This document shows positions 31,626 to 50,400 of a stretch of DNA of 64,000 bases, piece by piece; positions within the stretch are counted from its first letter, which is position 1; each line of letters begins with the position of its first letter. The stretch is from assembly GCF_055900595.2 (NCBI RefSeq), contig NZ_CM148325.1. The stretch is one strand, 5' to 3'. The translations under genes were made by a program, and so were the position numbers. The notes below the pieces were generated by a model that did no database searches, was not told where the DNA came from, and saw nothing but the letters and a program-made list of their open reading frames with translations.

Positions 31626-32573
31626 ATGCAAAATCGGCTGACCATCAAAGACATCGCGCGCTTAAGCGGCGTGGGGAAATCTACGGTTTCCCGAGTGCTG
31701 AATAACGAAAGCGGCGTGAGTCAGCGCACGCGCGAGCGCGTGGAAGCAGTGATGAATCAGCATGGATTTTCCCCTTCCCGCTCCGCGCGCGCTATGCGTG
31801 GGCAAAGCGATAAAGTGGTCGCCATCATTGTTACCCGTCTGGATTCGTTGTCAGAAAATCTCGCCGTCCAAACCATGCTGCCAGCGTTCTATGAACAAGG
31901 TTACGACCCGATCATGATGGAAAGTCAGTTTTCTCCGCAATTAGTTGCCGAACATTTGGGGGTGCTGAAACGGCGTAATATCGACGGCGTAGTGCTGTTC
32001 GGTTTTACCGGCATAACCGAAGACATGTTAGCCCACTGGCAGTCATCGCTGGTTCTGCTGGCGCGTGACGCAAAAGGCTTTGCTTCGGTCTGTTATGACG
32101 ACGAAGGGGCAATCAAAATCCTGATGCAACGGCTGTATGACCAGGGGCATCGTAATATCAGTTATCTCGGCGTACCGCACAGTGACGTGACGACCGGTAA
32201 GCGACGTCACGAAGCCTACCTGGCGTTCTGCAAAGCGCATAAACTGCATCCCGTTGCCGCTCTGCCAGGCCTTGCGATGAAGCAAGGCTATGAGAACGTA
32301 GCAAAAGTGATTACGCCTGAAACTACCGCGTTACTGTGCGCAACCGACACGCTGGCACTTGGCGCAAGTAAATACCTGCAAGAGCAACGCATCGACACCT
32401 TGCAACTGGCGAGCGTCGGTAATACGCCGTTAATGAAATTCCTCCATCCGGAGATCGTCACCGTTGACCCAGGTTACGCCGAAGCTGGACGCCAGGCGGC
32501 CAGCCAGTTAATTGCGCAGGTAACCGGGCGCAGCGAACCGCAACAAATCATCATCCCTGCCACCCTATCCTGA
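31626..32573 (+). CDS. treR: Trehalose operon repressor, LacI family (315 aa)
   Basis: Translation MQNRLTIKDIARLSGVGKSTVSRVLNNE... with helix-turn-helix; the ORF-track start at 31566 is an over-extension. Confidence 0.9.
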   Translation: MQNRLTIKDIARLSGVGKSTVSRVLNNESGVSQRTRERVEAVMNQHGFSPSRSARAMRGQSDKVVAIIVTRLDSLSENLAVQTMLPAFYEQGYDPIMMESQFSPQLVAEHLGVLKRRNIDGVVLFGFTGITEDMLAHWQSSLVLLARDAKGFASVCYDDEGAIKILMQRLYDQGHRNISYLGVPHSDVTTGKRRHEAYLAFCKAHKLHPVAALPGLAMKQGYENVAKVITPETTALLCATDTLALGASKYLQEQRIDTLQLASVGNTPLMKFLHPEIVTVDPGYAEAGRQAASQLIAQVTGRSEPQQIIIPATLS

Positions 32574-32612
32574 TCGTTTCCTGAACGATAAATTGTGATC
32601 TTCGCTGCGTTT

Positions 32613-32626
32613 CGGGAACGTTCCCG
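32613..32626. promoter_or_regulatory. Putative TreR operator (perfect 14-bp palindrome) with adjacent CRP-like half-site
   Basis: cgggaacgttcccg is a perfect palindrome 66 bp upstream of treB; a TGTGA motif lies at 32594-32598. Confidence 0.5.
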
Positions 32627-32691
32627 TTTTTAAATTTTTCCGCGCACTATATTCTGCAGCCAACCAAAAATGTCATCTGCCATGGGGCTTT

Positions 32692-34113
32692 ATGATGAGC
32701 AAAATAAACCAAACGGATCTCGATCGGTTGATTGAACTGGTCGGCGGGCGCGGCAACATTGCGACGGTGAGCCACTGTATTACTCGCCTGCGCTTTGTCC
32801 TCAACCAACCGGCCAATGCCAGACCGAAAGAGATTGAGCAACTCCCCATGGTGAAAGGCTGTTTCACCAATGCCGGGCAATTTCAGGTGGTAATTGGCAC
32901 CAACGTGGGTGATTACTATCAAGCGCTGATAGCGACGACCGGACAGGCGCAGGTTGATAAAGAGCAGGTGAAAAAAGCTGCCCGGCAGAATATGAAATGG
33001 CATGAGCAGTTGATCTCTCATTTCGCGGAGATCTTCTTCCCGCTGCTGCCCGCGTTGATTAGTGGTGGTTTGATCCTCGGTTTTCGCAATGTGATCGGTG
33101 ATTTGCCCATGAGCAACGGTCAAACGCTGGCGCAAATGTACCCTTCCCTGCAAACGATCTACGATTTTCTATGGTTGATCGGTGAAGCGATCTTCTTCTA
33201 CCTGCCGGTCGGAATTTGCTGGTCAGCGGTGAAAAAAATGGGCGGCACGCCGATCCTCGGTATCGTGCTTGGCGTGACGCTGGTTTCCCCACAGTTGATG
33301 AACGCTTATCTGCTCGGGCAGCAGCTACCGGAAGTATGGAACTTTGGCATGTTCAGCATCGCCAAAGTGGGCTATCAGGCACAGGTTATTCCGGCACTGT
33401 TAGCCGGGCTGGCGCTGGGCGTGATAGAAACTCGCCTTAAGCGTATCGTGCCGGATTATCTCTATCTGGTGGTGGTGCCGGTCTGTTCGCTGATCCTCGC
33501 GGTGTTCCTCGCCCATGCGCTGATTGGTCCGTTTGGTCGCATGATTGGCGATGGCGTTGCCTTTGCGGTGCGTCACCTGATGACCGGCAGCTTTGCCCCC
33601 ATTGGTGCGGCATTGTTTGGCTTCCTTTACGCACCGCTGGTGATCACCGGCGTACACCAGACCACGCTTGCTATAGATTTGCAGATGATTCAAAGCATGG
33701 GTGGCACGCCAGTGTGGCCGCTTATTGCGCTGTCGAATATCGCTCAGGGCTCCGCCGTGATAGGCATTATCATTTCCAGCCGCAAGAGCAATGAACGCGA
33801 GATCTCCGTACCTGCCGCTATCTCCGCCTGGCTTGGGGTCACTGAGCCTGCAATGTACGGCATCAACCTGAAATATCGCTTCCCGATGCTGTGCGCGATG
33901 ATTGGTTCTGGTCTGGCAGGATTGCTATGTGGTCTGAACGGCGTTATGGCGAATGGCATCGGCGTAGGCGGCCTGCCGGGAATTCTCTCTATTCAACCGA
34001 GCTACTGGCAAGTGTTTGTGCTGGCAATGGCTATCGCCATCATCATCCCGATTGTACTCACTTCGTTTATCTACCAGCGGAAATACCGCCTGGGTACGCT
34101 GGACATTGTTTAA
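32692..34113 (+). CDS. treB: PTS trehalose-specific EIIBC component (473 aa)
   Basis: Translation MMSKINQTDLDRLIELVGGRGNIATVSHCITRLRF... with the EIIB cysteine motif. Confidence 0.9.
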   Translation: MMSKINQTDLDRLIELVGGRGNIATVSHCITRLRFVLNQPANARPKEIEQLPMVKGCFTNAGQFQVVIGTNVGDYYQALIATTGQAQVDKEQVKKAARQNMKWHEQLISHFAEIFFPLLPALISGGLILGFRNVIGDLPMSNGQTLAQMYPSLQTIYDFLWLIGEAIFFYLPVGICWSAVKKMGGTPILGIVLGVTLVSPQLMNAYLLGQQLPEVWNFGMFSIAKVGYQAQVIPALLAGLALGVIETRLKRIVPDYLYLVVVPVCSLILAVFLAHALIGPFGRMIGDGVAFAVRHLMTGSFAPIGAALFGFLYAPLVITGVHQTTLAIDLQMIQSMGGTPVWPLIALSNIAQGSAVIGIIISSRKSNEREISVPAAISAWLGVTEPAMYGINLKYRFPMLCAMIGSGLAGLLCGLNGVMANGIGVGGLPGILSIQPSYWQVFVLAMAIAIIIPIVLTSFIYQRKYRLGTLDIV

Positions 34114-34162
34114 TTTTCTTCGGGGCGCAATTGCGCCCCCTCGCATTTGCAGGAATAACGTA

Positions 34163-35818
34163 ATGACGAATCTTCCCCACTGGTGGCAAAACGGCGTTAT
34201 CTACCAGATTTATCCCAAGAGTTTTCAGGACACCACGGGCAGCGGTACCGGCGATTTACGTGGCGTTATCCAACGCCTGGACTATCTGCAAAAACTGGGC
34301 GTCGATGCTATCTGGTTGACCCCCTTTTATGTCTCTCCCCAGGTCGATAACGGATACGACGTAGCGAACTATACGGCGATAGATCCCACTTACGGTACGC
34401 TGGACGATTTTGACGAACTGGTGACGCAGGCGAAATCGCGCGGCATTCGTATCATTCTCGATATGGTGTTTAATCATACTTCTACCCAACATACCTGGTT
34501 TCGCGAGGCGCTGAGCAAAGAAAGCCCTTACCGTCAGTTTTATATCTGGCGCGATGGTGAACCAGAAACGCCACCGAATAACTGGCGTTCAAAATTTGGC
34601 GGTAGTGCGTGGCGCTGGCATGCGGAAAGCGAACAGTACTATTTGCATCTCTTTGCACCAGAACAGGCGGATCTCAACTGGGAGAATCCGACGGTACGCG
34701 CAGAACTGAAAAAAGTCTGTGAGTTCTGGGCCGATCGCGGGGTCGATGGGTTACGCCTGGATGTAGTGAATTTGATCTCTAAAGATCCGCGTTTTCCTAA
34801 TGACCTGGATGGCGACGGGCGTCGCTTCTACACCGACGGGCCACGAGCACACGAGTTTTTGCACGAGATGAACCGCGATGTGTTTACGCCTCGCGGTTTA
34901 ATGACCGTGGGTGAAATGTCCTCCACCAGCCTTGAGCATTGCCAGCGATACGCGGCACTAACAGGCAGTGAATTGTCGATGACCTTTAATTTTCATCACC
35001 TGAAGGTCGATTATCCCGGTGGTGAAAAATGGACGCTGGCTAAACCTGACTTTGTGGCGTTGAAAGCATTGTTCCGCCACTGGCAACAAGGAATGCACAA
35101 CGTGGCATGGAATGCCTTGTTCTGGTGTAACCACGATCAGCCGCGCATTGTTTCTCGTTTTGGTGATGAAGGGGACTACCGCGAACCTGCGGCAAAAATG
35201 CTGGCGATGGTGCTGCATGGCATGCAGGGAACGCCATATATCTATCAGGGCGAAGAGATTGGCATGACTAACCCACATTTCACGCGCATTACTGACTATC
35301 GCGACGTGGAGAGCCTCAATATGTTTGCCGAACTGCGCAACGATGGGCGTGACGCCGAGGAGTTATTGGCAATCCTCGCCAGTAAATCCCGTGACAATAG
35401 TCGCACGCCAATGCAATGGAGCAACGGCGATAATGCCGGGTTTACAACGGGTGAACCGTGGATTGGCCTGGGCGATAACTATCAAGAAATCAACGTAGAA
35501 GCCGCGCTGGCCGATGAGTCCTCGGTGTTTTACACCTACCAAAAGTTAATCGCACTGCGTAAGCAAGAAGCCGTCCTGACATGGGGCAATTACCAGGATC
35601 TGCTGCCAGACAGCCCTGTATTGTGGTGCTATCGCCGTGAATGGAAGGGGCAAACCTTGCTGGTCATTGCCAACCTTAGCCGTGAGATCCAACCCTGGCA
35701 GCCAGGGCAAATGCGCGGAAACTGGCAGCTTGTGATGCATAACTACGAAGAAGTCTCAGCACAACCCTGTGCCATGACTTTACGGCCTTTTGAGGCCGTC
35801 TGGTGGTTACAGAAGTAA
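34163..35818 (+). CDS. treC: Trehalose-6-phosphate hydrolase, GH13 (551 aa)
   Basis: Translation MTNLPHWWQNGVIYQIYPKSFQDTTGSGTGDL... with GH13 motifs DAIWLTPF and GVDGLRLDVV; the ORF-track start at 34016 is an over-extension. Confidence 0.9.
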   Translation: MTNLPHWWQNGVIYQIYPKSFQDTTGSGTGDLRGVIQRLDYLQKLGVDAIWLTPFYVSPQVDNGYDVANYTAIDPTYGTLDDFDELVTQAKSRGIRIILDMVFNHTSTQHTWFREALSKESPYRQFYIWRDGEPETPPNNWRSKFGGSAWRWHAESEQYYLHLFAPEQADLNWENPTVRAELKKVCEFWADRGVDGLRLDVVNLISKDPRFPNDLDGDGRRFYTDGPRAHEFLHEMNRDVFTPRGLMTVGEMSSTSLEHCQRYAALTGSELSMTFNFHHLKVDYPGGEKWTLAKPDFVALKALFRHWQQGMHNVAWNALFWCNHDQPRIVSRFGDEGDYREPAAKMLAMVLHGMQGTPYIYQGEEIGMTNPHFTRITDYRDVESLNMFAELRNDGRDAEELLAILASKSRDNSRTPMQWSNGDNAGFTTGEPWIGLGDNYQEINVEAALADESSVFYTYQKLIALRKQEAVLTWGNYQDLLPDSPVLWCYRREWKGQTLLVIANLSREIQPWQPGQMRGNWQLVMHNYEEVSAQPCAMTLRPFEAVWWLQK

Positions 35819-35830
35819 GTATCCGCTAAG

Positions 35831-35860
35831 CCCCGGTAATACTGGTCATTCCGGGGTTTT
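35831..35860 (+). terminator. Putative treC terminator
   Basis: ccccgg-(14-nt loop)-ccgggg followed by tttt, 13 nt after the treC stop. Confidence 0.45.
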
Positions 35861-35962
35861 GCCTTTCAGTATGTTGTTTTTGTTGATTTTATAATCAAAA
35901 AATTCATTAAAAAATTTACATAACGCTGTAGCGCCCGTCATCCGTACGCTCTGCTTTTTACT

Positions 35963-36019
35963 TTGAGCTACATCAAAAAAAGTTCAAACATCCTTGATGC
36001 AAAGCACTATATATAGACT
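35963..36019. promoter_or_regulatory. Putative FNR boxes and NrdR-box-like palindrome upstream of nrdD
   Basis: TTGAGctacATCAA (35963-35976) and TTGATgcaaAGCAC (35995-36008) match the FNR TTGAT-N4-ATCAA pattern; the overlapping cactatatatag resembles an NrdR box. Confidence 0.4.
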
Positions 36020-36211
36020 TTAAAATGCGTCCCGACCCAATATGTTGTATTAATCGACTATAATTGCTACTACAGCTCCCCACGAAAAAGGTGCGGCGTT
36101 GTGGATAAGCGGATGGCGATTGCGGAAAGCACCGGAAAACGAAACGAAAAAACCGGAAAACGCCTTTCCCAATTTCTGTGGATAACCTGTTCTTAAAAAT
36201 ATGGAGCGATC

Positions 36212-38350
36212 ATGACACCGCATGTGATGAAACGAGACGGCTGCAAAGTGCCGTTTAAATCAGAGCGCATCAAAGAAGCGATTCTGCGTGCAGCTAAAGC
36301 AGCGGAAGTCGATGATGCAGATTATTGCGCCACTGTTGCCGCGGTTGTCAGCGAGCAGATGCAGGGCCGCAGCCAGGTGGATATCAACGAGATCCAGACC
36401 GCCGTTGAAAACCAGCTGATGTCGGGTCCATACAAACAACTGGCTCGTGCTTACATCGAGTACCGTCACGATCGCGACATTGAACGTGAAAAACGCGGTC
36501 GCCTGAATCAGGAGATCCGTGGTCTGGTCGAGCAGACCAACGCCTCGTTGCTCAACGAAAACGCCAACAAAGACAGCAAGGTGATTCCAACCCAGCGCGA
36601 CCTGCTGGCCGGGATTGTGGCTAAACACTATGCACGTCAGCACCTGCTGCCGCGTGACGTGGTGCAGGCGCATGAGCGTGGCGATATTCACTATCACGAT
36701 CTCGATTACTCGCCGTTCTTCCCGATGTTCAACTGCATGTTGATCGACCTGAAAGGTATGCTGACCCAGGGCTTTAAGATGGGTAACGCCGAGATTGAAC
36801 CACCGAAGTCGATCTCTACGGCAACCGCGGTAACAGCGCAGATTATTGCTCAGGTCGCCAGTCATATTTATGGCGGCACCACCATTAACCGTATCGATGA
36901 AGTGCTGGCACCGTTTGTCACCGCCAGCTACAACAAACACCGCAAGACCGCAGAAGAGTGGAACATCCCGGACGCCGAAGGTTACGCTAACTCTCGTACC
37001 ATCAAAGAGTGCTACGATGCCTTCCAGTCGCTGGAGTACGAAGTAAACACCCTGCACACCGCCAACGGTCAAACACCGTTTGTGACCTTTGGTTTTGGTC
37101 TGGGCACCAGCTGGGAGTCTCGCCTGATTCAGGAGTCTATCCTGCGTAACCGTATCGCTGGCCTGGGTAAAAACCGCAAAACTGCGGTGTTCCCGAAACT
37201 GGTGTTTGCGATTCGCGATGGCCTGAACCATAAAAAAGGCGATCCGAACTACGACATCAAACAGCTGGCGCTGGAGTGCGCAAGCAAGCGCATGTATCCG
37301 GATATCCTGAACTACGATCAGGTAGTGAAAGTCACCGGTTCGTTTAAAACCCCGATGGGCTGCCGTAGCTTCCTCGGCGTGTGGGAAAATGAAAACGGCG
37401 AACAGATCCACGATGGTCGTAACAACCTCGGCGTGATCAGCCTGAACCTACCGCGCATTGCGCTGGAAGCGAAAGGCGATGAGGCCACCTTCTGGAAGCT
37501 GCTGGATGAACGTCTGGTGCTGGCACGTAAGGCGCTGATGACCCGTATCGCTCGTCTCGAAGGCGTTAAAGCGCGCGTGGCCCCGATCCTCTATATGGAA
37601 GGTGCTTGTGGCGTTCGTCTGAATGCTGACGACGACGTTTCTGAAATCTTCAAAAACGGTCGTGCGTCTATTTCGCTGGGTTACATCGGCATCCACGAAA
37701 CCATTAACGCGCTGTTTGGCGGCGAGCATGTGTATGATAACGAGCAGCTGCGCGCGAAAGGTATCGCCATTGTTGAACGTCTGCGTCAGGCGGTGGATCA
37801 GTGGAAAGAAGAAACGGGTTACGGTTTTAGCCTTTACAGCACGCCAAGTGAAAACCTGTGCGACCGCTTCTGCCGTCTCGATACCGCGGAGTTTGGCGTG
37901 GTGCCGGGCGTGACTGATAAAGGTTACTACACCAACAGTTTCCACCTCGATGTGGAGAAGAAGGTGAACCCGTACGACAAGATCGACTTTGAAGCGCCTT
38001 ACCCGCCGCTGGCGAACGGTGGCTTCATTTGCTACGGCGAATATCCAAACATTCAGCACAACCTGAAGGCGCTGGAAGATGTCTGGGATTACAGCTATCA
38101 GCATGTACCGTATTACGGCACCAATACGCCGATTGATGAGTGTTACGAGTGTGGTTTTACCGGTGAGTTTGAGTGCACCAGTAAAGGCTTCACCTGCCCG
38201 AAATGTGGTAACCATGACGCCTCCCGTGTGTCGGTGACTCGCCGCGTGTGCGGATATTTAGGTAGCCCGGATGCGCGTCCGTTTAACGCTGGTAAGCAGG
38301 AAGAAGTTAAGCGCCGCGTTAAACATTTGGGAAATGGGCAGATCGGTTAA
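36212..38350 (+). CDS. nrdD: Anaerobic ribonucleoside-triphosphate reductase (712 aa)
   Basis: C-terminal glycyl-radical motif RVCGYLG and the Zn-ribbon cysteines CYECGF...CPKCG. Confidence 0.95.
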   Translation: MTPHVMKRDGCKVPFKSERIKEAILRAAKAAEVDDADYCATVAAVVSEQMQGRSQVDINEIQTAVENQLMSGPYKQLARAYIEYRHDRDIEREKRGRLNQEIRGLVEQTNASLLNENANKDSKVIPTQRDLLAGIVAKHYARQHLLPRDVVQAHERGDIHYHDLDYSPFFPMFNCMLIDLKGMLTQGFKMGNAEIEPPKSISTATAVTAQIIAQVASHIYGGTTINRIDEVLAPFVTASYNKHRKTAEEWNIPDAEGYANSRTIKECYDAFQSLEYEVNTLHTANGQTPFVTFGFGLGTSWESRLIQESILRNRIAGLGKNRKTAVFPKLVFAIRDGLNHKKGDPNYDIKQLALECASKRMYPDILNYDQVVKVTGSFKTPMGCRSFLGVWENENGEQIHDGRNNLGVISLNLPRIALEAKGDEATFWKLLDERLVLARKALMTRIARLEGVKARVAPILYMEGACGVRLNADDDVSEIFKNGRASISLGYIGIHETINALFGGEHVYDNEQLRAKGIAIVERLRQAVDQWKEETGYGFSLYSTPSENLCDRFCRLDTAEFGVVPGVTDKGYYTNSFHLDVEKKVNPYDKIDFEAPYPPLANGGFICYGEYPNIQHNLKALEDVWDYSYQHVPYYGTNTPIDECYECGFTGEFECTSKGFTCPKCGNHDASRVSVTRRVCGYLGSPDARPFNAGKQEEVKRRVKHLGNGQIG

Positions 38351-38373
38351 TCTTCACTCTGCGCTAAGCAAAT

Positions 38374-38457
<84 letters not shown>

Positions 38458-38507
38458 GTTGATTGCCTGATACCGCCTACACGCGGACTGATAAGCCAGG
38501 CGAAATA

Positions 38508-38972
38508 ATGAATTATCATCAGTACTATCCTGTCGACATCGTCAACGGCCCCGGCACTCGCTGCACCCTGTTTGTCTCCGGGTGTGTTCATGAATGCCCC
38601 GGTTGCTATAACAAAAGCACCTGGCGGGTAAATTCCGGTCAGCCATTTACCAAAGCAATGGAAGACCAGATCATTAACGATCTGAATGACACCCGCATCA
38701 AACGCCAGGGTATTTCCCTCTCCGGCGGCGATCCGCTGCATCCGCAAAACGTGCCGGATATTCTGAAACTGGTACAACGCATCCGCGCCGAATGTCCGGG
38801 TAAAGACATCTGGGTGTGGACAGGCTATAAACTCGACGAACTCAACGCTGCGCAAATGCAGGTTGTTGATTTGATTAACGTGCTGGTCGACGGCAAATTT
38901 ATGCAGGATCTAAAAGACCCTTCCCTGATCTGGCGCGGCAGCAGCAATCAGGTGGTGCATCATTTGCGTTAG
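38508..38972 (+). CDS. nrdG: Anaerobic RNR activating enzyme, radical SAM (154 aa)
   Basis: Translation MNYHQYYPVDIVNGPGTRCTLFVSGCVHECPGCYN... with the CxxxCxxC cluster; the ORF-track start at 38463 is an over-extension. Confidence 0.9.
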   Translation: MNYHQYYPVDIVNGPGTRCTLFVSGCVHECPGCYNKSTWRVNSGQPFTKAMEDQIINDLNDTRIKRQGISLSGGDPLHPQNVPDILKLVQRIRAECPGKDIWVWTGYKLDELNAAQMQVVDLINVLVDGKFMQDLKDPSLIWRGSSNQVVHHLR

Positions 38973-39212
38973 TCACTCATCCAGTCGGACCTTAATGGCC
39001 TCCTGTGGGTTGGCCAGTCGTTCCCTGACAGTGCGTAACAAGGCTTCTTCACTATCACTGACAGTGAGCGTTTTTACCGGCATTCGTCCATTTTCCGCAA
39101 CGTACTGAAACAGCAGCCGCACTGCTTCAGTAGGCGTGATGTTTAATTTTTCCAGCACCGCATAAGCCTCATTTTTCAGTTTGTCATCCAGGCGGACGTT
39201 AAGTGTGGCCAT
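38973..39212 (-). CDS. Small RelB/DinJ-like ribbon-helix-helix protein (79 aa), no cognate toxin adjacent
   Basis: Translation MATLNVRLDDKLKNEAYAVLEKLNITPTEAVRLLFQYVAENGRMPVKTL... resembles the DinJ N-terminal pattern (VRARIDEDLKNQA...GLT.SDLVR); its stop codon abuts the nrdG stop. Confidence 0.5.
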   Translation of the reverse strand: MATLNVRLDDKLKNEAYAVLEKLNITPTEAVRLLFQYVAENGRMPVKTLTVSDSEEALLRTVRERLANPQEAIKVRLDE

Positions 39213-39402
39213 TATGCCTCCGGTAATTATGAAAAGTGTAATGCATTATAGCATTACATATGCATTACATTCATTTCTGGAAAACGCCTCGCAAAAATGA
39301 GGACGACACGCAGGAATATGCCGTAGTGAAGATAGATATTGCGGTGATTTTACGAAGGGGAAGAAAGCGTTGGGCGGTAACGTTTCACCGCCCAATAAGG
39401 AA

Positions 39403-39792
<390 letters not shown>

Positions 39793-39841
39793 TCACTTCC
39801 TTTTTCTTATTAAGATTTGGCGCGGCAGGTCGCGCCTTTTT

Positions 39842-41194
39842 TTACTGCCCGGCGATTTTCATCTCCGGCAACAGCACAGAACCACACTGTATATTGCTGC
39901 GTGTTTCAATATCGTTACCGACGGTGACAATATTGCGCCACATATCTTTTAAATTACCTGCGATGGTGATTTCGCTAACCGGATACTGAATTTCGCCATT
40001 CTCTACCCAGAAGCCCGCAGCACCACGGGAATAATCACCGGTAATGGCACTCACGCCCTGGCCCATCAGTTCCGTCACCACCAGCCCGGTGCCCATCTCT
40101 TTGAGCATTTGTTCGAAGCTTAGCCCTTGTCCGGCAATCCGCCAGTTGTGAATACCGCCCGCATGTCCGGTGCTTTTCAGCCCCAGTTTCCGCGCCGAAT
40201 AGCTGGTCAGCAGCCACTGAGTCAGGATACCATCTTTGACGATATCGCGGCGCTCGGTGCGCACACCTTCGCTGTCGAATGGTGTAGATGCCAGTCCTTT
40301 CAGCAGATGCGGATGCTCTTCAATGGTCAGCCAATCCGGCAGAATTTGTTTACCCAGCGAATCCAGCAGGAAGGTGGATTTACGGTAAACCGATCCACCC
40401 GCTATCGCCCCCACCAAATGACCAAACAACCCTGTTGCCACTTCATTGGCAAAAATTACCGGCGCTTTCATGGTGGAAAGTTTACGCGGTGACAGGCGCG
40501 ATAAAGTACGGCGAGCACAGTCGGCCCCGACCCACTCTGGCGTCTGCAGATCGCTCATCGCGCGACCAATGGTGTAGGCGTAATCACGCTCCATATCGCC
40601 ATTTTCTTCGGCAATTACGCAGCTTGAGAGTGAATGACGCGTTGAGCAATAACCCTGCAACATGCCGTGGCTGTTGCCAAAAACTTTTACGCCGTAGTGG
40701 CTGTTAAAACTGCCGCCTTCGGTATTGGTGATGCGTTTATCCGCCTGTAATGCTGCCTGTTCTGCGCGAGCCGCCAGTTCAATAGCTTCATCCGGGGAAA
40801 CTTCCGCAGGGTGAAACAAGTCGAGATCCGGCGCGTCAAAGGCCAGCAGCTCTTTGTCTGCCACGCCGGCACAGGGATCTGGCGAGGTATAACGGGCAAT
40901 ATCCAGCGCTGCCTGTACGGTGCGGGCAATGGCCTGCGGGCTTAAATCGGTAGACGATGCGCTACCTTTACGGTTCTGGTGATAAACAGTGATCCCCAGC
41001 GCGCCATCGCTATTGAATTCAACATTCTCCACTTCACCATAACGCGTGCTTACGCTAATGCCGGTGGTCTTGCTGACGGCAACTTCCGCACCGTCCGATT
41101 TGCCTGAGGCCAACTCCAGCGCAGTGGAAACTGCTTCTTCCAGAATCTTGCGCTGCGCTTCAACTTGAGAGATTACTTTCATTGCAAGTGCCAT
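39842..41194 (-). CDS. pmbA: Metalloprotease PmbA/TldE (450 aa)
   Basis: Translation [40 protein letters not shown]... Confidence 0.9.
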
Positions 41195-41287
41195 AATGTA
41201 GAGAGTTTCTCTGAAGTCTAACAGAGAACCGTTTTTCAGTGCGCATCTTAACTGGTAACATTAGCCTCTTTTTTTAAGGAGCCTGAG

Positions 41288-41839
41288 ATGACTAAGCAGC
41301 CCGAAGACTGGCTCGACGACGTTCCCGGTGATGACATCGAAGACGAAGACGATGAAATTATCTGGGTCAGTAAAAGTGAAATTAAACGCGATGCCGAGGA
41401 GCTAAAACGCCTTGGCGCAGAAATTGTTGATCTGGGGAAAAACGCGCTGGATAAGATCCCGTTAGACGCGGATCTGCGTGCGGCTATCGAGTTAGCCCAG
41501 CGTATTAAGATGGAAGGTCGCCGCCGCCAGTTGCAGCTCATCGGTAAGATGCTGCGCCAGCGCGACGTAGAACCGATCCGTCAGGCGCTGGATAAGCTGA
41601 AAAACCGCCACAACCAGCAAGTGGTGTTGTTCCATAAACTGGAAAACCTGCGCGATCGTCTGATCGAGCAAGGTGATGACGCCATCGCTGAAGTATTGAA
41701 TCTGTGGCCCGATGCCGATCGTCAGCAACTGCGAACTCTGATCCGCAACGCGAAGAAAGAGAAAGAAGGGAATAAGCCGCCGAAATCCGCGCGCCAGATT
41801 TTCCAGTATCTGCGTGAGTTAGCGGAAAACGAAGGGTAA
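41288..41839 (+). CDS. yjgA: Ribosome-associated protein YjgA, DUF615 (183 aa)
   Basis: Translation [43 protein letters not shown]... Confidence 0.85.
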
Positions 41840-41866
41840 TTTTCGTTGTTGATGTGAGTATGGTTT

Positions 41867-41970
41867 GCCGGATGCGGTGCACCTGTAGGCCTGATAAGAC
41901 GCATCAAGCGTCGCATCAGGCACTATGCTCAAATGCCGGATGCGGCGTGAACGCCTTATCCGGCCTACAC
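41867..41970. repeat. BIME / REP cluster between yjgA and mpl
   Basis: gccggatgcggtgcacctgtaggcctgataagacgcatcaagcgtcgcatcaggcac and gccggatgcggcgtgaacgccttatccggcctacac. Confidence 0.75.
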
Positions 41971-41994
41971 ACACTATATCAGGCTGAGGCAGAA

Positions 41995-43368
41995 TTACTG
42001 CGCGGCTTCCGCTTTCTTCGCTAGCCCATCCAGCAGTTTCTGATGAATTCCACCAAAACCGCCGTTGCTCATCACCAGAATATGGTCGCCAGGCTGAGCG
42101 GTTTTCACCACCATATCTGCCAGCGTATCAACATCGCCACTCCAGTGTGCAGGCTGAACGCAGGCTTCTGCCACTTCTGCGACCTGCCACGGAATATGCG
42201 CCGGTTGCAGCAGGAAGACTTCATCGGCACGACCTAATGAAGGTGCCAAATCGTCTTTGCAGATCCCCATTTTCATGGTGTTTGAGCGCGGTTCCAGCAC
42301 GGCAATAATGCGCGCCGTACCGCCAACTTTGCCGCGCAGCGCAGCCAGCGTTGCCAGAATCGCCGTCGGGTGATGGGCAAAATCGTCATACACCGTCACG
42401 CCATTTGCTTCTCCGCGCAACTCCAGACGACGACGAGCGTTAATAAACGAACCCAGCGCGTTAGCAGCATCTGCCGGCGCTACGCCAACATGACGGGCCG
42501 CCGCAATCGCCATCAGGCCGTTGTGCATATTATGTTCGCCCACCAGCGACCATTTCACTTCGCCCACTTTTTCGCCATCCAGCAAGACTTCCCATTCGGA
42601 AGCGTCAGTGGTCAGCTTTTTCGCCTGCCAGTGCCCCTGCTCGCCCACCAGCTCCTGCTCGCTCCAGCAGCCCATCGCCATGGTTTGTTTCAGGTTGATG
42701 TCGTTTTCCGGCCAGATAATACGCCCCTGCCCCGGAACGATACGCACCAGATGGTGGAACTGTTTCTGGATCGCTTTCAGGTCGTCAAAGATATCGGCAT
42801 GATCGAACTCAAGGTTGTTGAGGATCAGCGTACGCGGGCAGTAATGGACAAATTTAGAGCGTTTGTCGAAGAAGGCGCAGTCATACTCATCCGCTTCGAT
42901 AACAAAGAAGTCGCTTTCGCCTAAACGTGCCGAAACGTCAAAGTTCCCCGGAACACCGCCGATCACAAAACCCGGTTTATAGCCACACTGTTCCAGAATC
43001 CAGGTCGCCATTCCCGCCGTGGTGGTTTTGCCGTGTGTACCGGCAACGGCCAACACCCAGCGGTCACGCAGCACAAAATCGTGCAGCCACTGCGGGCCAG
43101 ACATATAAGGGATGTTTTTTTCCAGTACCGCTTCCACACACGGATTTCCACGGGTCATGGCGTTGCCAATGATCACCAGATCCGGCTGCGGGTCGAGCTG
43201 GCTGGCATCGTAACCCTGAATCAGTTCAATGCCTTGCTTCTCAAGTAAGGTGCTCATCGGCGGATACACATTGGCGTCCGAACCCGTTACTTCATGGCCT
43301 AACTGGCGCGCCAGCATCGCCAGACCGCCCATAAACGTGCCACAAATTCCTAAAATATGAATGCGCAT
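41995..43368 (-). CDS. mpl: UDP-N-acetylmuramate:L-alanyl-gamma-D-glutamyl-meso-DAP ligase (457 aa)
   Basis: Mur ligase ATP-binding motif GTHGKTTT; begins MRIHILGICGTFMGGLAMLARQLGH. Confidence 0.9.
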   Translation of the reverse strand: MRIHILGICGTFMGGLAMLARQLGHEVTGSDANVYPPMSTLLEKQGIELIQGYDASQLDPQPDLVIIGNAMTRGNPCVEAVLEKNIPYMSGPQWLHDFVLRDRWVLAVAGTHGKTTTAGMATWILEQCGYKPGFVIGGVPGNFDVSARLGESDFFVIEADEYDCAFFDKRSKFVHYCPRTLILNNLEFDHADIFDDLKAIQKQFHHLVRIVPGQGRIIWPENDINLKQTMAMGCWSEQELVGEQGHWQAKKLTTDASEWEVLLDGEKVGEVKWSLVGEHNMHNGLMAIAAARHVGVAPADAANALGSFINARRRLELRGEANGVTVYDDFAHHPTAILATLAALRGKVGGTARIIAVLEPRSNTMKMGICKDDLAPSLGRADEVFLLQPAHIPWQVAEVAEACVQPAHWSGDVDTLADMVVKTAQPGDHILVMSNGGFGGIHQKLLDGLAKKAEAAQ

Positions 43369-43543
43369 ACGTCACTATCCTTTTTTAATCTGGCGCTCAT
43401 TTTACGCATATGTCGGGCAAGTGAGAAACGCATTTCAGGATAATCCGTAATTTGCTGGCGCGATTCACCTGAGCGCAACATTGAGATTATTTGTTAAGAT
43501 TGTTGCGGTCGCTTTACTCCATAAACATTGCAGGGAAAGTTTT

Positions 43544-44542
43544 ATGAAAACGTTAGGTGAATTTATTGTCGAAAAGCAGCACGAGTTTTCTCATGCTACC
43601 GGTGAGCTCACTGCTTTGCTGTCGGCAATAAAACTGGGCGCCAAGATTATCCATCGCGATATCAACAAAGCAGGACTGGTTGATATCCTGGGTGCCAGCG
43701 GTGCTGAGAACGTGCAGGGCGAGGTTCAGCAGAAACTCGACTTGTTCGCTAATGAAAAACTGAAAGCCGCACTGAAAGCACGCGATATCGTTGCGGGCAT
43801 TGCCTCTGAAGAAGAAGATGAGATTGTCGTCTTTGAAGGCTGTGAACACGCAAAATACGTGGTGCTGATGGACCCACTGGATGGCTCGTCCAACATCGAT
43901 GTTAACGTCTCTGTCGGTACCATTTTCTCCATCTACCGCCGCGTTACGCCTGTTGGCACGCCGGTAACGGAAGAAGATTTCCTCCAGCCTGGTAACAAAC
44001 AGGTTGCGGCAGGTTACGTGGTATACGGCTCCTCTACCATGCTGGTTTACACCACCGGATGCGGTGTTCATGCCTTTACTTACGATCCTTCGCTTGGCGT
44101 TTTCTGCCTGTGCCAGGAACGGATGCGCTTCCCGGAGAAAGGCAAAACCTACTCCATCAACGAAGGAAACTACATTAAGTTTCCGAACGGGGTGAAGAAG
44201 TACATTAAATTCTGCCAGGAAGAAGATAAGTCTACCAACCGCCCGTATACCTCACGTTATATCGGTTCACTGGTCGCGGATTTCCACCGTAACCTGCTGA
44301 AAGGTGGGATTTATCTCTACCCAAGCACCGCCAGCCACCCGGACGGCAAACTGCGTTTGCTGTATGAGTGCAACCCGATGGCGTTCCTCGCGGAACAAGC
44401 GGGCGGTAAAGCGAGCGATGGCAAAGAGCGTATTCTGGATATCATCCCGGAAACCCTGCACCAGCGTCGTTCGTTCTTTGTCGGCAATGACCATATGGTT
44501 GAAGATGTCGAACGCTTTATCCGTGAGTTCCCGGACGCGTAA
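43544..44542 (+). CDS. fbp: Fructose-1,6-bisphosphatase class I (332 aa)
   Basis: Translation [45 protein letters not shown]...; the ORF-track start at 43481 is an over-extension. Confidence 0.95.
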
Positions 44543-44548
44543 TCTCCT

Positions 44549-44577
44549 GCGCCTCTCCATACGGAGAGGCGTTTTTA
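44549..44577. terminator. Bidirectional terminator between fbp and yjfF
   Basis: gcctctcc-atac-ggagaggc followed by gttttta, starting 7 nt after the fbp stop. Confidence 0.55.
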
Positions 44578-45570
44578 TCGCTGCGCAATATTGACTCTTG
44601 TCACTGGCGAACTCTGGCGATTCTCCCACAGCACCGTTAATCCACGCTGTAAGGCAATAAAAATGAACAGCAAAATGCCGATGGCGATTTTCGTCCACCA
44701 GGAACTCAGCGTACCGTCAAAGTTGATATATGTCTGAATCAGTCCCTGAATCGCCACGCCAAAAAGCGTCCCAAGTACTGTTCCAACGCCACCGCTCAAA
44801 AGTGTACCGCCAATCACCACTGAGGCGATAGCGTCCAGTTCCACACCTACGCCCGCCAGCGCATATCCGGCTTGGGTATAAATCGAGAAAACAATCCCCG
44901 CCAGTGTTGCCAGCCCGGTGGAGAGCATATAAATGCGAATAGTGGTGCTGCGAGTGGAAATGCCCATCAGGTTCGCCGACGTCGCGTTGCCACCAATGGC
45001 GTATACCTGATTACCAAAACGGGTACGATGCGCGAGGAATATGCCGATAACCACCACCGCAAGCATCAGCAGCCCCATCGCACTTAAGCGACCGCCGCCA
45101 GGGATTTTCCATGCAAGGCTTGAGAGCGTGTCATAAACAGGATGATTTATCGGGATCGACTCTTCCGAAACGAGATAGCTGACGCCACGCAAAAAGAACA
45201 TTCCTGCCAGAGTAATGATAAACGCCGGGATCTTCAGGGCGTCGATCAAAAGCCCCATAAATGCGCCAAAGGCACAGCCCATCACCAGCACCAGTGGAAA
45301 CGCCAGCAGCGGCGAGAGGCCGAAATCGCCAATCACTTTTGCCAGAAACACGCCGGTAAAGGCGATCACCGAACCGACGGAGAGATCGATCCCACCGGAG
45401 AGGATCACAAAGGTCATGCCAACGGCGATGATCCCCAGAAAAGCGTTATCGGTCAGGATATTGCAGATCACTCTTGTGGAAGCAAAACCGGGAAACTGCG
45501 TCAGACAGTAGAGATAACCCAGCACAAAGACGCCGATGGTGATCATAAGCGGCAGGTTACGTTTTATCAC
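44575..45570 (-). CDS. yjfF: Galactofuranose ABC transporter permease (331 aa)
   Basis: Polytopic permease beginning MIKRNLPLMITIGVFVLGYLYCL...; last gene of the ytfQRT-yjfF operon. Confidence 0.85.
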   Translation of the reverse strand: MIKRNLPLMITIGVFVLGYLYCLTQFPGFASTRVICNILTDNAFLGIIAVGMTFVILSGGIDLSVGSVIAFTGVFLAKVIGDFGLSPLLAFPLVLVMGCAFGAFMGLLIDALKIPAFIITLAGMFFLRGVSYLVSEESIPINHPVYDTLSSLAWKIPGGGRLSAMGLLMLAVVVIGIFLAHRTRFGNQVYAIGGNATSANLMGISTRSTTIRIYMLSTGLATLAGIVFSIYTQAGYALAGVGVELDAIASVVIGGTLLSGGVGTVLGTLFGVAIQGLIQTYINFDGTLSSWWTKIAIGILLFIFIALQRGLTVLWENRQSSPVTRVNIAQR

Positions 45571-48116: not shown

Positions 48117-48198
48117 TGCGCCAGATAAGACACAACAGCGTCGCATCAGGCATCTCGCACAACCGCCGGATGCGGCGTGAATGCCTTATCCGGCGGCC
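48117..48198. repeat. BIME / REP cluster between ytfR and ytfQ
   Basis: gcgccagataagacacaacagcgtcgcatcaggca and gccggatgcggcgtgaatgccttatccggcggccc. Confidence 0.7.
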
Positions 48199-50359: not shown

Positions 50360-50400
50360 TCGCATAAAACAACGCCACCCGAAGGTGGCGTGCTTTTATT
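50360..50400. terminator. Bidirectional terminator immediately 3' of ytfP
   Basis: cgccacc-cgaa-ggtggcg flanked by A/T-rich runs on both sides (aaaacaa before, tgcttttatt after). Confidence 0.5.

Follow-up and report, generated by a model that had tools for sequence, protein, structure and literature searches.

A solitary RelB-family antitoxin gene between nrdG and cybC of Escherichia coli, the remnant of a relBE cassette that lost its toxin gene

The interval between nrdG and cybC holds a short open reading frame that resembles the antitoxins of relBE modules and stands there without a toxin gene, which raises the question of whether it encodes a genuine antitoxin and, if so, how it came to be alone. 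The window analysed here is the whole stretch of 64,000 nucleotides (64 kb) that surrounds it. The frame starts with ATG and runs for 79 codons on the minus strand, and its translation is the one quoted in the preliminary description. Reading the frame and positions 38970-38975 confirmed that it ends directly against nrdG: its stop codon (TCA on the plus strand, 38973-38975) adjoins the nrdG stop codon TAG (38970-38972) with a gap of 0 bp. On the other side, 190 bp separate its start from the end of cybC (stop at 39403). These 190 bp had been said to contain no frame at all and to leave no room for a partner toxin; the latter stands, but the former has to be amended, as short overlapping frames of 39-49 aa are present, none of them toxin-like. 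A cognate toxin elsewhere in the same transcript, which would have changed the picture, was not found, and tblastn searches of the 64-kb window with the cognate RelE and with K-12 RelE returned no RelE-like sequence (best E = 4).

The length of the frame is uninformative by itself, since the surrounding 3 kb has antisense frames of 88-255 aa inside nrdD, cybC and pmbA. The encoded protein matches the NCBIfam equivalog NF008412 over profile positions 1-79 of 80 (128.2 bits against a cut-off of 96, E = 1e-37), a curated cut-off of the RelB/DinJ family being exceeded across the full length, as well as TIGR02384 (72.2 bits against a cut-off of 45.65) and Pfam RelB PF04221 (8.1e-16). It also aligns end to end (residues 1-79, E = 4e-20, 47% identity) with E. 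coli K-12 RelB (PDB 4FXE), a protein of the same family and length that belongs to the relBE module of the Qin cryptic prophage. [quoted passage not shown] The putative C-terminal toxin-binding region is present as well and aligns with K-12 RelB residues 49-78, with only the last Leu gone. Like K-12 RelB, the protein would thus join an RHH N-terminus with R7 and K13 to a toxin-wrapping C-terminal region, a likeness read here from sequence alone; unlike K-12 relBE, the gene lies at the nrdG-cybC locus and not in a prophage, has no relE downstream and lacks the codon of the terminal Leu. The DinJ/RelB-like RHH pattern that had been read from the letters is therefore borne out by the NF008412, PF04221 and 4FXE matches, the profile searches returning strong antitoxin similarity rather than the lack of it that would have counted against the claim. 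Judged by its sequence, the 79-aa ORF encodes a RelB-family antitoxin in full length. A frame that is open by chance, or an artefact of annotation, which the chance ORFs of similar length on both strands of this region could suggest, is refuted by the equivalog-level profile match, by the PF04221 and 4FXE matches and by a conservation that extends to 35 species loci (57-100% identity, with the Shine-Dalgarno sequence and promoter conserved), and can be dismissed with near certainty. RefSeq names the identical protein, which occupies the same position in Z0117EC0005 (NZ_CP098223) and many other strains, and the exact 79-aa sequence is found in 1,000 or more public contigs; the gene is already annotated and, in this sense, already known. 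A literature search on the nrdG-cybC antitoxin locus returned nothing beyond a 2007 O157:H7 transcriptome paper.

The solitude of the gene was studied by comparing the nrdG-cybC interval of 5,426 complete E. coli genomes, which carry one of three alleles. The empty allele, a 44-bp spacer with a hairpin, is present in ~4,970 of them. K-12 MG1655 is among these: a distance of 44 bp separates its cybC pseudogene from nrdG and no gene lies between them, which answers a question that the preliminary description had left open. Toxin DNA was found in 394 of the 5,426 genomes (~7%) and antitoxin DNA in 452, so that ~58 genomes should have the antitoxin alone; the antitoxin-only (orphan) allele was indeed found in ~57 (~1%), the window among them, and the relBE-family cassette as a whole occurs in ~8% of E. 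coli. In the intact pair, an 80-aa antitoxin (WP_000212715.1 in all the intact pairs examined) is followed by a 96-aa RelE-family toxin (WP_001105433.1 and variants; 64% identical to K-12 RelE) whose start overlaps the end of the antitoxin, and the toxin stop codon adjoins that of nrdG. This nrdG-linked relBE, found in E. coli and other Enterobacteriaceae, has the same gene at the same site as the window and an identical promoter and operator; the antitoxin differs only in its last residue and the window allele lacks the 283 bp with the toxin gene. In nearly every genome, a toxin DNA probe matched no more than a single locus, which was always the one at nrdG; the orphan genomes gave no match. 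Since the adjacent toxin that characterizes a type II module is missing from the window and present in the allelic copies (394 E. coli genomes), the window holds the remnant of a module and not a module. The two readings first offered for the ORF, a solitary regulator related to antitoxins or what is left of a decayed toxin-antitoxin (TA) pair, thus both hold, as the allelic copies have RelE and the window has a 283-bp deletion.

When the three alleles are aligned, a single clean deletion of 283 bp, which removes the toxin gene, sets the window allele apart from the intact one; an unrelated 1-bp indel near 39359 also separates them. The intact relE and relB genes each have a copy of the octamer TCATCCAG at their 3' end, and the two copies lie at a distance of 283 bp (positions 1778 and 2061 of the intact locus L001). 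On the coding strand, the octamer reads CTGGATGA and encodes L-D-E; the repeat exists because RelB ends in ...VRLDEL and the cognate RelE in ...KRLDE. In the full allele, relB ends in GAT GAA CTA TGA and relE in GAT GAG TGA, and in the window the relE tail lies to the left of the single remaining copy and relB to its right. The ORF is a relB-relE chimera in its last four bases and uses the stop codon of the toxin in frame. The deletion cost the antitoxin no more than one residue, the Leu at the end of the 80-aa form. K-12 RelB without residues 70-79 still suppresses RelE and represses its operator (PMC12301738), and by analogy the loss of this Leu should be harmless.

The junction was then followed across genomes with three 46-nt probes that are able to seed only across the contiguous junction. 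The first, for a TCATCCAG-T-CGG junction, found 29 genomes, including the window type, IAI39 and CE10; the second, for TCATCCAG-C-CGG with a TAG nrdG stop codon, found 2; and the third, for the C variant with a TAA nrdG stop codon, found 26, mostly O145:H28. These add up to 57 orphans, essentially all the toxin-less loci, and the junction lies at TCATCCAG in 57/57, so that the toxin deletions found in the E. coli orphans all used that repeat. The point of crossover resolution within an imperfect 11-bp repeat, TCATCCAG-Y-CG, can be read from base 38985, a T in the window and a C in other orphans, the T and C junction variants corresponding to crossovers on either side of its single mismatch. 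The toxin gene was removed by a microhomology deletion between 8-bp direct repeats.

Two other rearrangements were observed in single genomes of the same species. The toxin of E. coli O158:H23 CFIAFB20140388 (L042, 2493-4793) is split by IS100 (istA/istB) and its antitoxin is intact; this insertion is another route of toxin inactivation. The reverse case is E. coli RM14516 (L041, NZ_CP043937, 2445-2745), with a 124-bp deletion inside relB that corresponds to ~39036-39159 of the window. The promoter is kept, and codons 1-18 of relB continue through a frameshifted stretch of 18 codons into an apparently intact relE (WP_001105433.1), which stays in frame; no antitoxin is left.

Table 1. Features of the cassette remnant and its surroundings in the window
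Feature	Positions	Strand	Basis
RelB-family antitoxin ORF, 79 aa, WP_000212714.1	38973..39212	-	predicted N-terminal RHH domain and C-terminal toxin-binding region
Deletion scar: one 8-bp repeat TCATCCAG left	38977..38984		three-allele alignment, junction sequences
Stop codon TGA and third base of the last codon GAG, relE-derived	38973..38976	-	allele alignment and junctions
Shine-Dalgarno sequence GGAGG, 4 nt 5' of ATG	39217..39221	-	read from the sequence; conserved across genera
Extended -10 TGCTATAAT (TATAAT 39245-39250, TG 39252-39253)	39245..39253	-	sequence; without a good -35
Putative operator, three TGTAATGC/GCATTACA half-sites (39237-39244, 39251-39258, 39262-39269)	39237..39269	-	repeats, conservation
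GC-rich hairpin with T-rich tail, likely cybC terminator	39370..39395	-	terminator scan, inverted repeat
Whole cassette remnant replacing the 44-bp nrdG-cybC spacer	38970..39394		allele comparison

The remnant as a whole (Table 1) has a GC content of 0.47, against 0.51-0.52 in the flanking genes. The hairpin at its right end is missing from the empty allele, which has another one; as the cybC terminator, it likely shields the relB promoter from cybC read-through. At the left end, nrdG and relB converge without a terminator between them (38970-39212), where the empty allele has a hairpin, so that read-through of nrdDG would run antisense to relB, and vice versa. The intact pair likewise lacks a terminator on the nrdG side, and anaerobic induction of nrdDG could disturb the expression of the cassette. 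Among the neighbouring features, cybC (cytochrome b562, 39403-39789) has 128 intact codons in the window, unlike the gene annotated as a pseudogene in K-12 MG1655, and the space between nrdD and nrdG has palindromic repeats of the REP/BIME type (38351-38500). At gathering thresholds, Rfam returned no RNA family in the nrdG-cybC interval; three matches to the REP-derived naRNA4 are found elsewhere in the window (41888-41965, 14655-14730 and 48119-48195).

A strict sigma-70 scan of 38800-39500 found no promoter, because there is no good -35; the putative relB promoter was assigned from the conserved extended -10. The motif TGCTA occurs in 34 of the 36 upstream regions compared, and the upstream block made up of the Shine-Dalgarno sequence, TGCTATAAT and the half-sites is nearly invariant across the enterobacterial loci (~30 species). 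In E. coli, the Shine-Dalgarno sequence, TGCTATAAT and the three TGTAATGC half-sites are the same in the orphan and full alleles, and most orphans are unchanged. The half-sites overlap and flank the -10, and the hexad ATGTAA within them fits the motif [A/T]TGT[A/C]A that defines relO in K-12 (PMC2812701), where relO, TTGTAATGACATTTGTAATTACAAG, likewise overlaps the -10. At the sequence level, repeated hexads that overlap the -10 are what would be expected of the autoregulatory operator of a relBE module. The candidate operator thus resembles K-12 relO in being made of ATGTAA-type hexads over the -10, and differs from it in having three TGTAATGC half-sites at 11-bp spacing instead of four subsites. 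Two orphan genomes, AF3 (L055) and MSB1_4I, have lost one 11-bp unit (39251-39261 in the window), the leftover being a palindrome, TGTAATGC-TATAAT-GCATTACA; this may reflect relaxation or a retuned autoregulation after the loss of the toxin.

The locus was also searched beyond E. coli by a scan of one genome per bacterial species, which returned 35 loci and, having been seeded with antitoxin peptides, is biased against loci with decayed antitoxins. The antitoxin has 79-80 aa in all 35 and a relE-like sequence lies directly downstream in 33. The gene converges on nrdG in ~29 of the 35 (NrdG identities 86-100%), including loci from Citrobacter, Salmonella enterica subsp. arizonae and diarizonae, Enterobacter, Klebsiella pneumoniae, Kluyvera, Kosakonia, Pluralibacter, Trabulsiella and others. 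The comparison across Enterobacteriaceae that the preliminary description had proposed therefore yields what it looked for, a RelE gene next to the antitoxin, in ~30 other species. The toxin is intact in ~24 of the 35 loci and disrupted in ~7 (L005, L007, L009, L016, L017, L029 and L034), all with a full-length antitoxin; in two more (L030 and L035) it has an altered and longer C-terminus (117-118 aa), and in two Escherichia representatives (L004 and L006) it is deleted at the same junction as in the window. The hosts of the independent toxin frameshifts or truncations are E. coli E69, E. whittamii, Citrobacter sp. NCU1, Enterobacter asburiae, Huaxiibacter, Kosakonia quasisacchari and Rosenbergiella. 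The 8-bp terminal repeat is found only in the Escherichia and Trabulsiella alleles, those of the other genera sharing at most 5 bp, which accounts for the precise deletion in Escherichia and the frameshifts in other genera.

The comparison of 12 orphan and 8 toxin-bearing E. coli alleles bears on whether the deletion occurred once or several times. Two main upstream haplotypes were found, group A with the window and most intact alleles and group B with IAI39, O145 and OkiPb01695. Each of the two groups includes the T as well as the C junction variant, and one intact allele, from strain GF4-3, has the group-B haplotype. All four combinations of deletion state and haplotype thus exist, which implies either that the deletion arose independently two or more times or that recombination took place within the 400-bp cassette. 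A tract of ~13 kb (window ~32,000-45,000, treR to mpl) is nearly identical to Z0117EC0005 (L053), with flanks that differ by 2-4%. The orphan allele certainly moves between strains by homologous recombination, and this 13-kb treR-mpl tract carries it. Elsewhere, the window and Z0117EC0005 differ in content at 21865-22868, by the ornithine carbamoyltransferase gene (argF in L053), and at ~50364-50389, where the window is without a 1.6-kb segment of Z0117EC0005 that holds a frameshifted esiB.

The interpretation that we favor, with a probability of about 80%, is that the gene is the antitoxin of a relBE pair that lost its toxin by the 283-bp repeat deletion and is now a near-neutral intermediate of TA loss. 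The functional steps of this scenario are modelled on K-12 RelB (PMC2812701, PMC12301738), which is only 47% identical. The orphan RelB would still be made and, as an RHH dimer, would bind its own operator. It would repress itself only partially because its co-repressor RelE is gone, K-12 RelB alone binding relO more weakly than with RelE (PMC12301738), and a weaker autoregulation than that of the intact relBE would be expected by analogy. Lon, of which K-12 RelB is a substrate (PMC2812701), would degrade the protein from the C-terminus that RelE normally protects. There is no toxin in cis to neutralise, and the loss of the TA pair would proceed toxin first and antitoxin later, since only this order avoids self-poisoning. 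Some orphan lineages have changes that are absent from the intact E. coli alleles sampled, namely A72T, an operator SNP and an 11-bp operator deletion. The orphan of the O145:H28 lineage (L039 and 25 others, mostly) combines A72T (38999), in the toxin-binding region, with a C>T change in the operator (39244) that sits in the promoter-proximal half-site; the T at 38999 is also found in the toxin-frameshifted allele of E. whittamii (L007).

Certain observations run counter to a neutral relic. The 79-codon frame is intact in all 12 orphan alleles read, without a single broken ORF, and none of the 46 orphans listed has a net coding indel. Moreover, 6 of the 7 coding substitutions private to orphans are synonymous and 1 is non-synonymous. 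This excess hints at a continuing purifying selection, or else at a very recent origin or import from intact alleles. It was dropped as a decisive test of selection: the order of substitutions and deletion cannot be established, because an intact allele with the group-B haplotype exists (GF4-3) and recombination tracts are evident.

One possibility is that selection maintains the orphan antitoxin because it confers immunity (anti-addiction) against an incoming cognate RelE or a mobile relBE, in which case intact cassettes or mobile relBE DNA could be lost or replaced without post-segregational killing. The intact frames and the synonymous excess could be explained in this way, as could the unchanged promoter and operator of most orphans, the apparent retention of the entire toxin-binding C-terminus, the fixation of the orphan allele in whole lineages such as O145:H28, the wide occurrence of the exact 79-aa protein (at least 1,000 public contigs) and the coexistence of the intact allele in the same species at 7%. 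Anti-addiction is also an established idea for orphan antitoxins (PMC7354431). The chromosomal ccdA of Erwinia chrysanthemi, as cited in that source, is likewise a chromosomal antitoxin able in principle to neutralise an incoming toxin; unlike this RelB, it belongs to another family and to an intact pair, and a matching plasmid toxin is known. Here, no closely matching toxin on invading mobile DNA was found in the plasmid and phage collections: among true plasmids no homologue exceeds 54% identity (the best is from Aeromonas), and the only genuine phage match has 47%. The plasmid collection gave three higher matches, to records of 0.55-5.4 Mb that were not counted as true plasmids, and the phage collection one of 83.5%, to a 501-kb Salmonella contig with the chromosomal pair. 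This lack of a close plasmid or phage homologue is the sole evidence that bears on the functions first suggested, neutralisation of incoming toxins or action as a transcription factor, and it speaks mildly against them. Furthermore, cross-talk among non-cognate RelBE pairs is reportedly rare (PMC12301738), the orphan occurs in only ~1% of genomes, some of its lineages carry A72T, the operator SNP or the operator deletion, and the synonymous excess could have been inherited from intact alleles or imported by recombination. A maintenance for immunity is therefore unlikely, though the intact chromosomal allele is a possible "invader" through recombination, against which the orphan might protect.

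This leads to a related and rather improbable scenario, in which the built-in 8-bp repeat makes the in-frame excision of the toxin recurrent and the resulting orphan is selected as immunity against the re-acquisition of the cassette. Excised alleles belong to two or more haplotypes, and their junctions come in two variants. If this were the case, the locus would be a three-state polymorphism (empty, addictive and immune) and not a simple decay series, with the cassette moving in ~10-kb tracts.

Alternatively, the orphan RelB could by now act in trans as a transcriptional regulator of other genes with TGTAATGC-type sites. The conservation of the predicted RHH domain and of its DNA-contact residues would allow it, and a regulatory role of orphan antitoxins has been suggested (PMC10790755). 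Nevertheless, the sole operator-like repeat cluster in the region covered by the repeat search (39190-39420) is its own, and the weaker binding of relO by K-12 RelB alone also makes such a role very unlikely. It is harder still to believe in a split system with a functional partner toxin at a distant place in the genome. TA components that are split or orphaned have been described (PMC10790755), and the RelE of the Qin-prophage relBE, present in many E. coli, has 64% identity to the deleted toxin; yet the 64-kb window has no RelE-like sequence, the toxin DNA probe always fell at nrdG and found nothing in orphan genomes, and an origin by deletion explains the solitude of the gene without a distant partner.

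A near-neutral relic left by the repeat deletion is thus the reading retained here, and it places the gene in a recognised class. Orphan antitoxins are abundant in surveys of E. coli (PMC10790755) and Klebsiella (K. pneumoniae via PMC7354431), which read them as remnants, regulators or anti-addiction genes; the catalogued ones are likewise antitoxins without an adjacent toxin. Unlike them, the orphan described here has a degradation event resolved to the base in ~57 genomes and on several haplotypes. The deletion mechanism at the base level and the three-allele polymorphism are a small addition to what is recognised for this class, and the significance is slight beyond annotation hygiene. Still, the locus offers a base-level example of how a TA pair may be safely dismantled, a microhomology deletion taking the toxin first and sparing the antitoxin, its promoter and its operator, and the natural empty, intact and orphan alleles within one species make it a convenient system for tests of orphan-antitoxin immunity.
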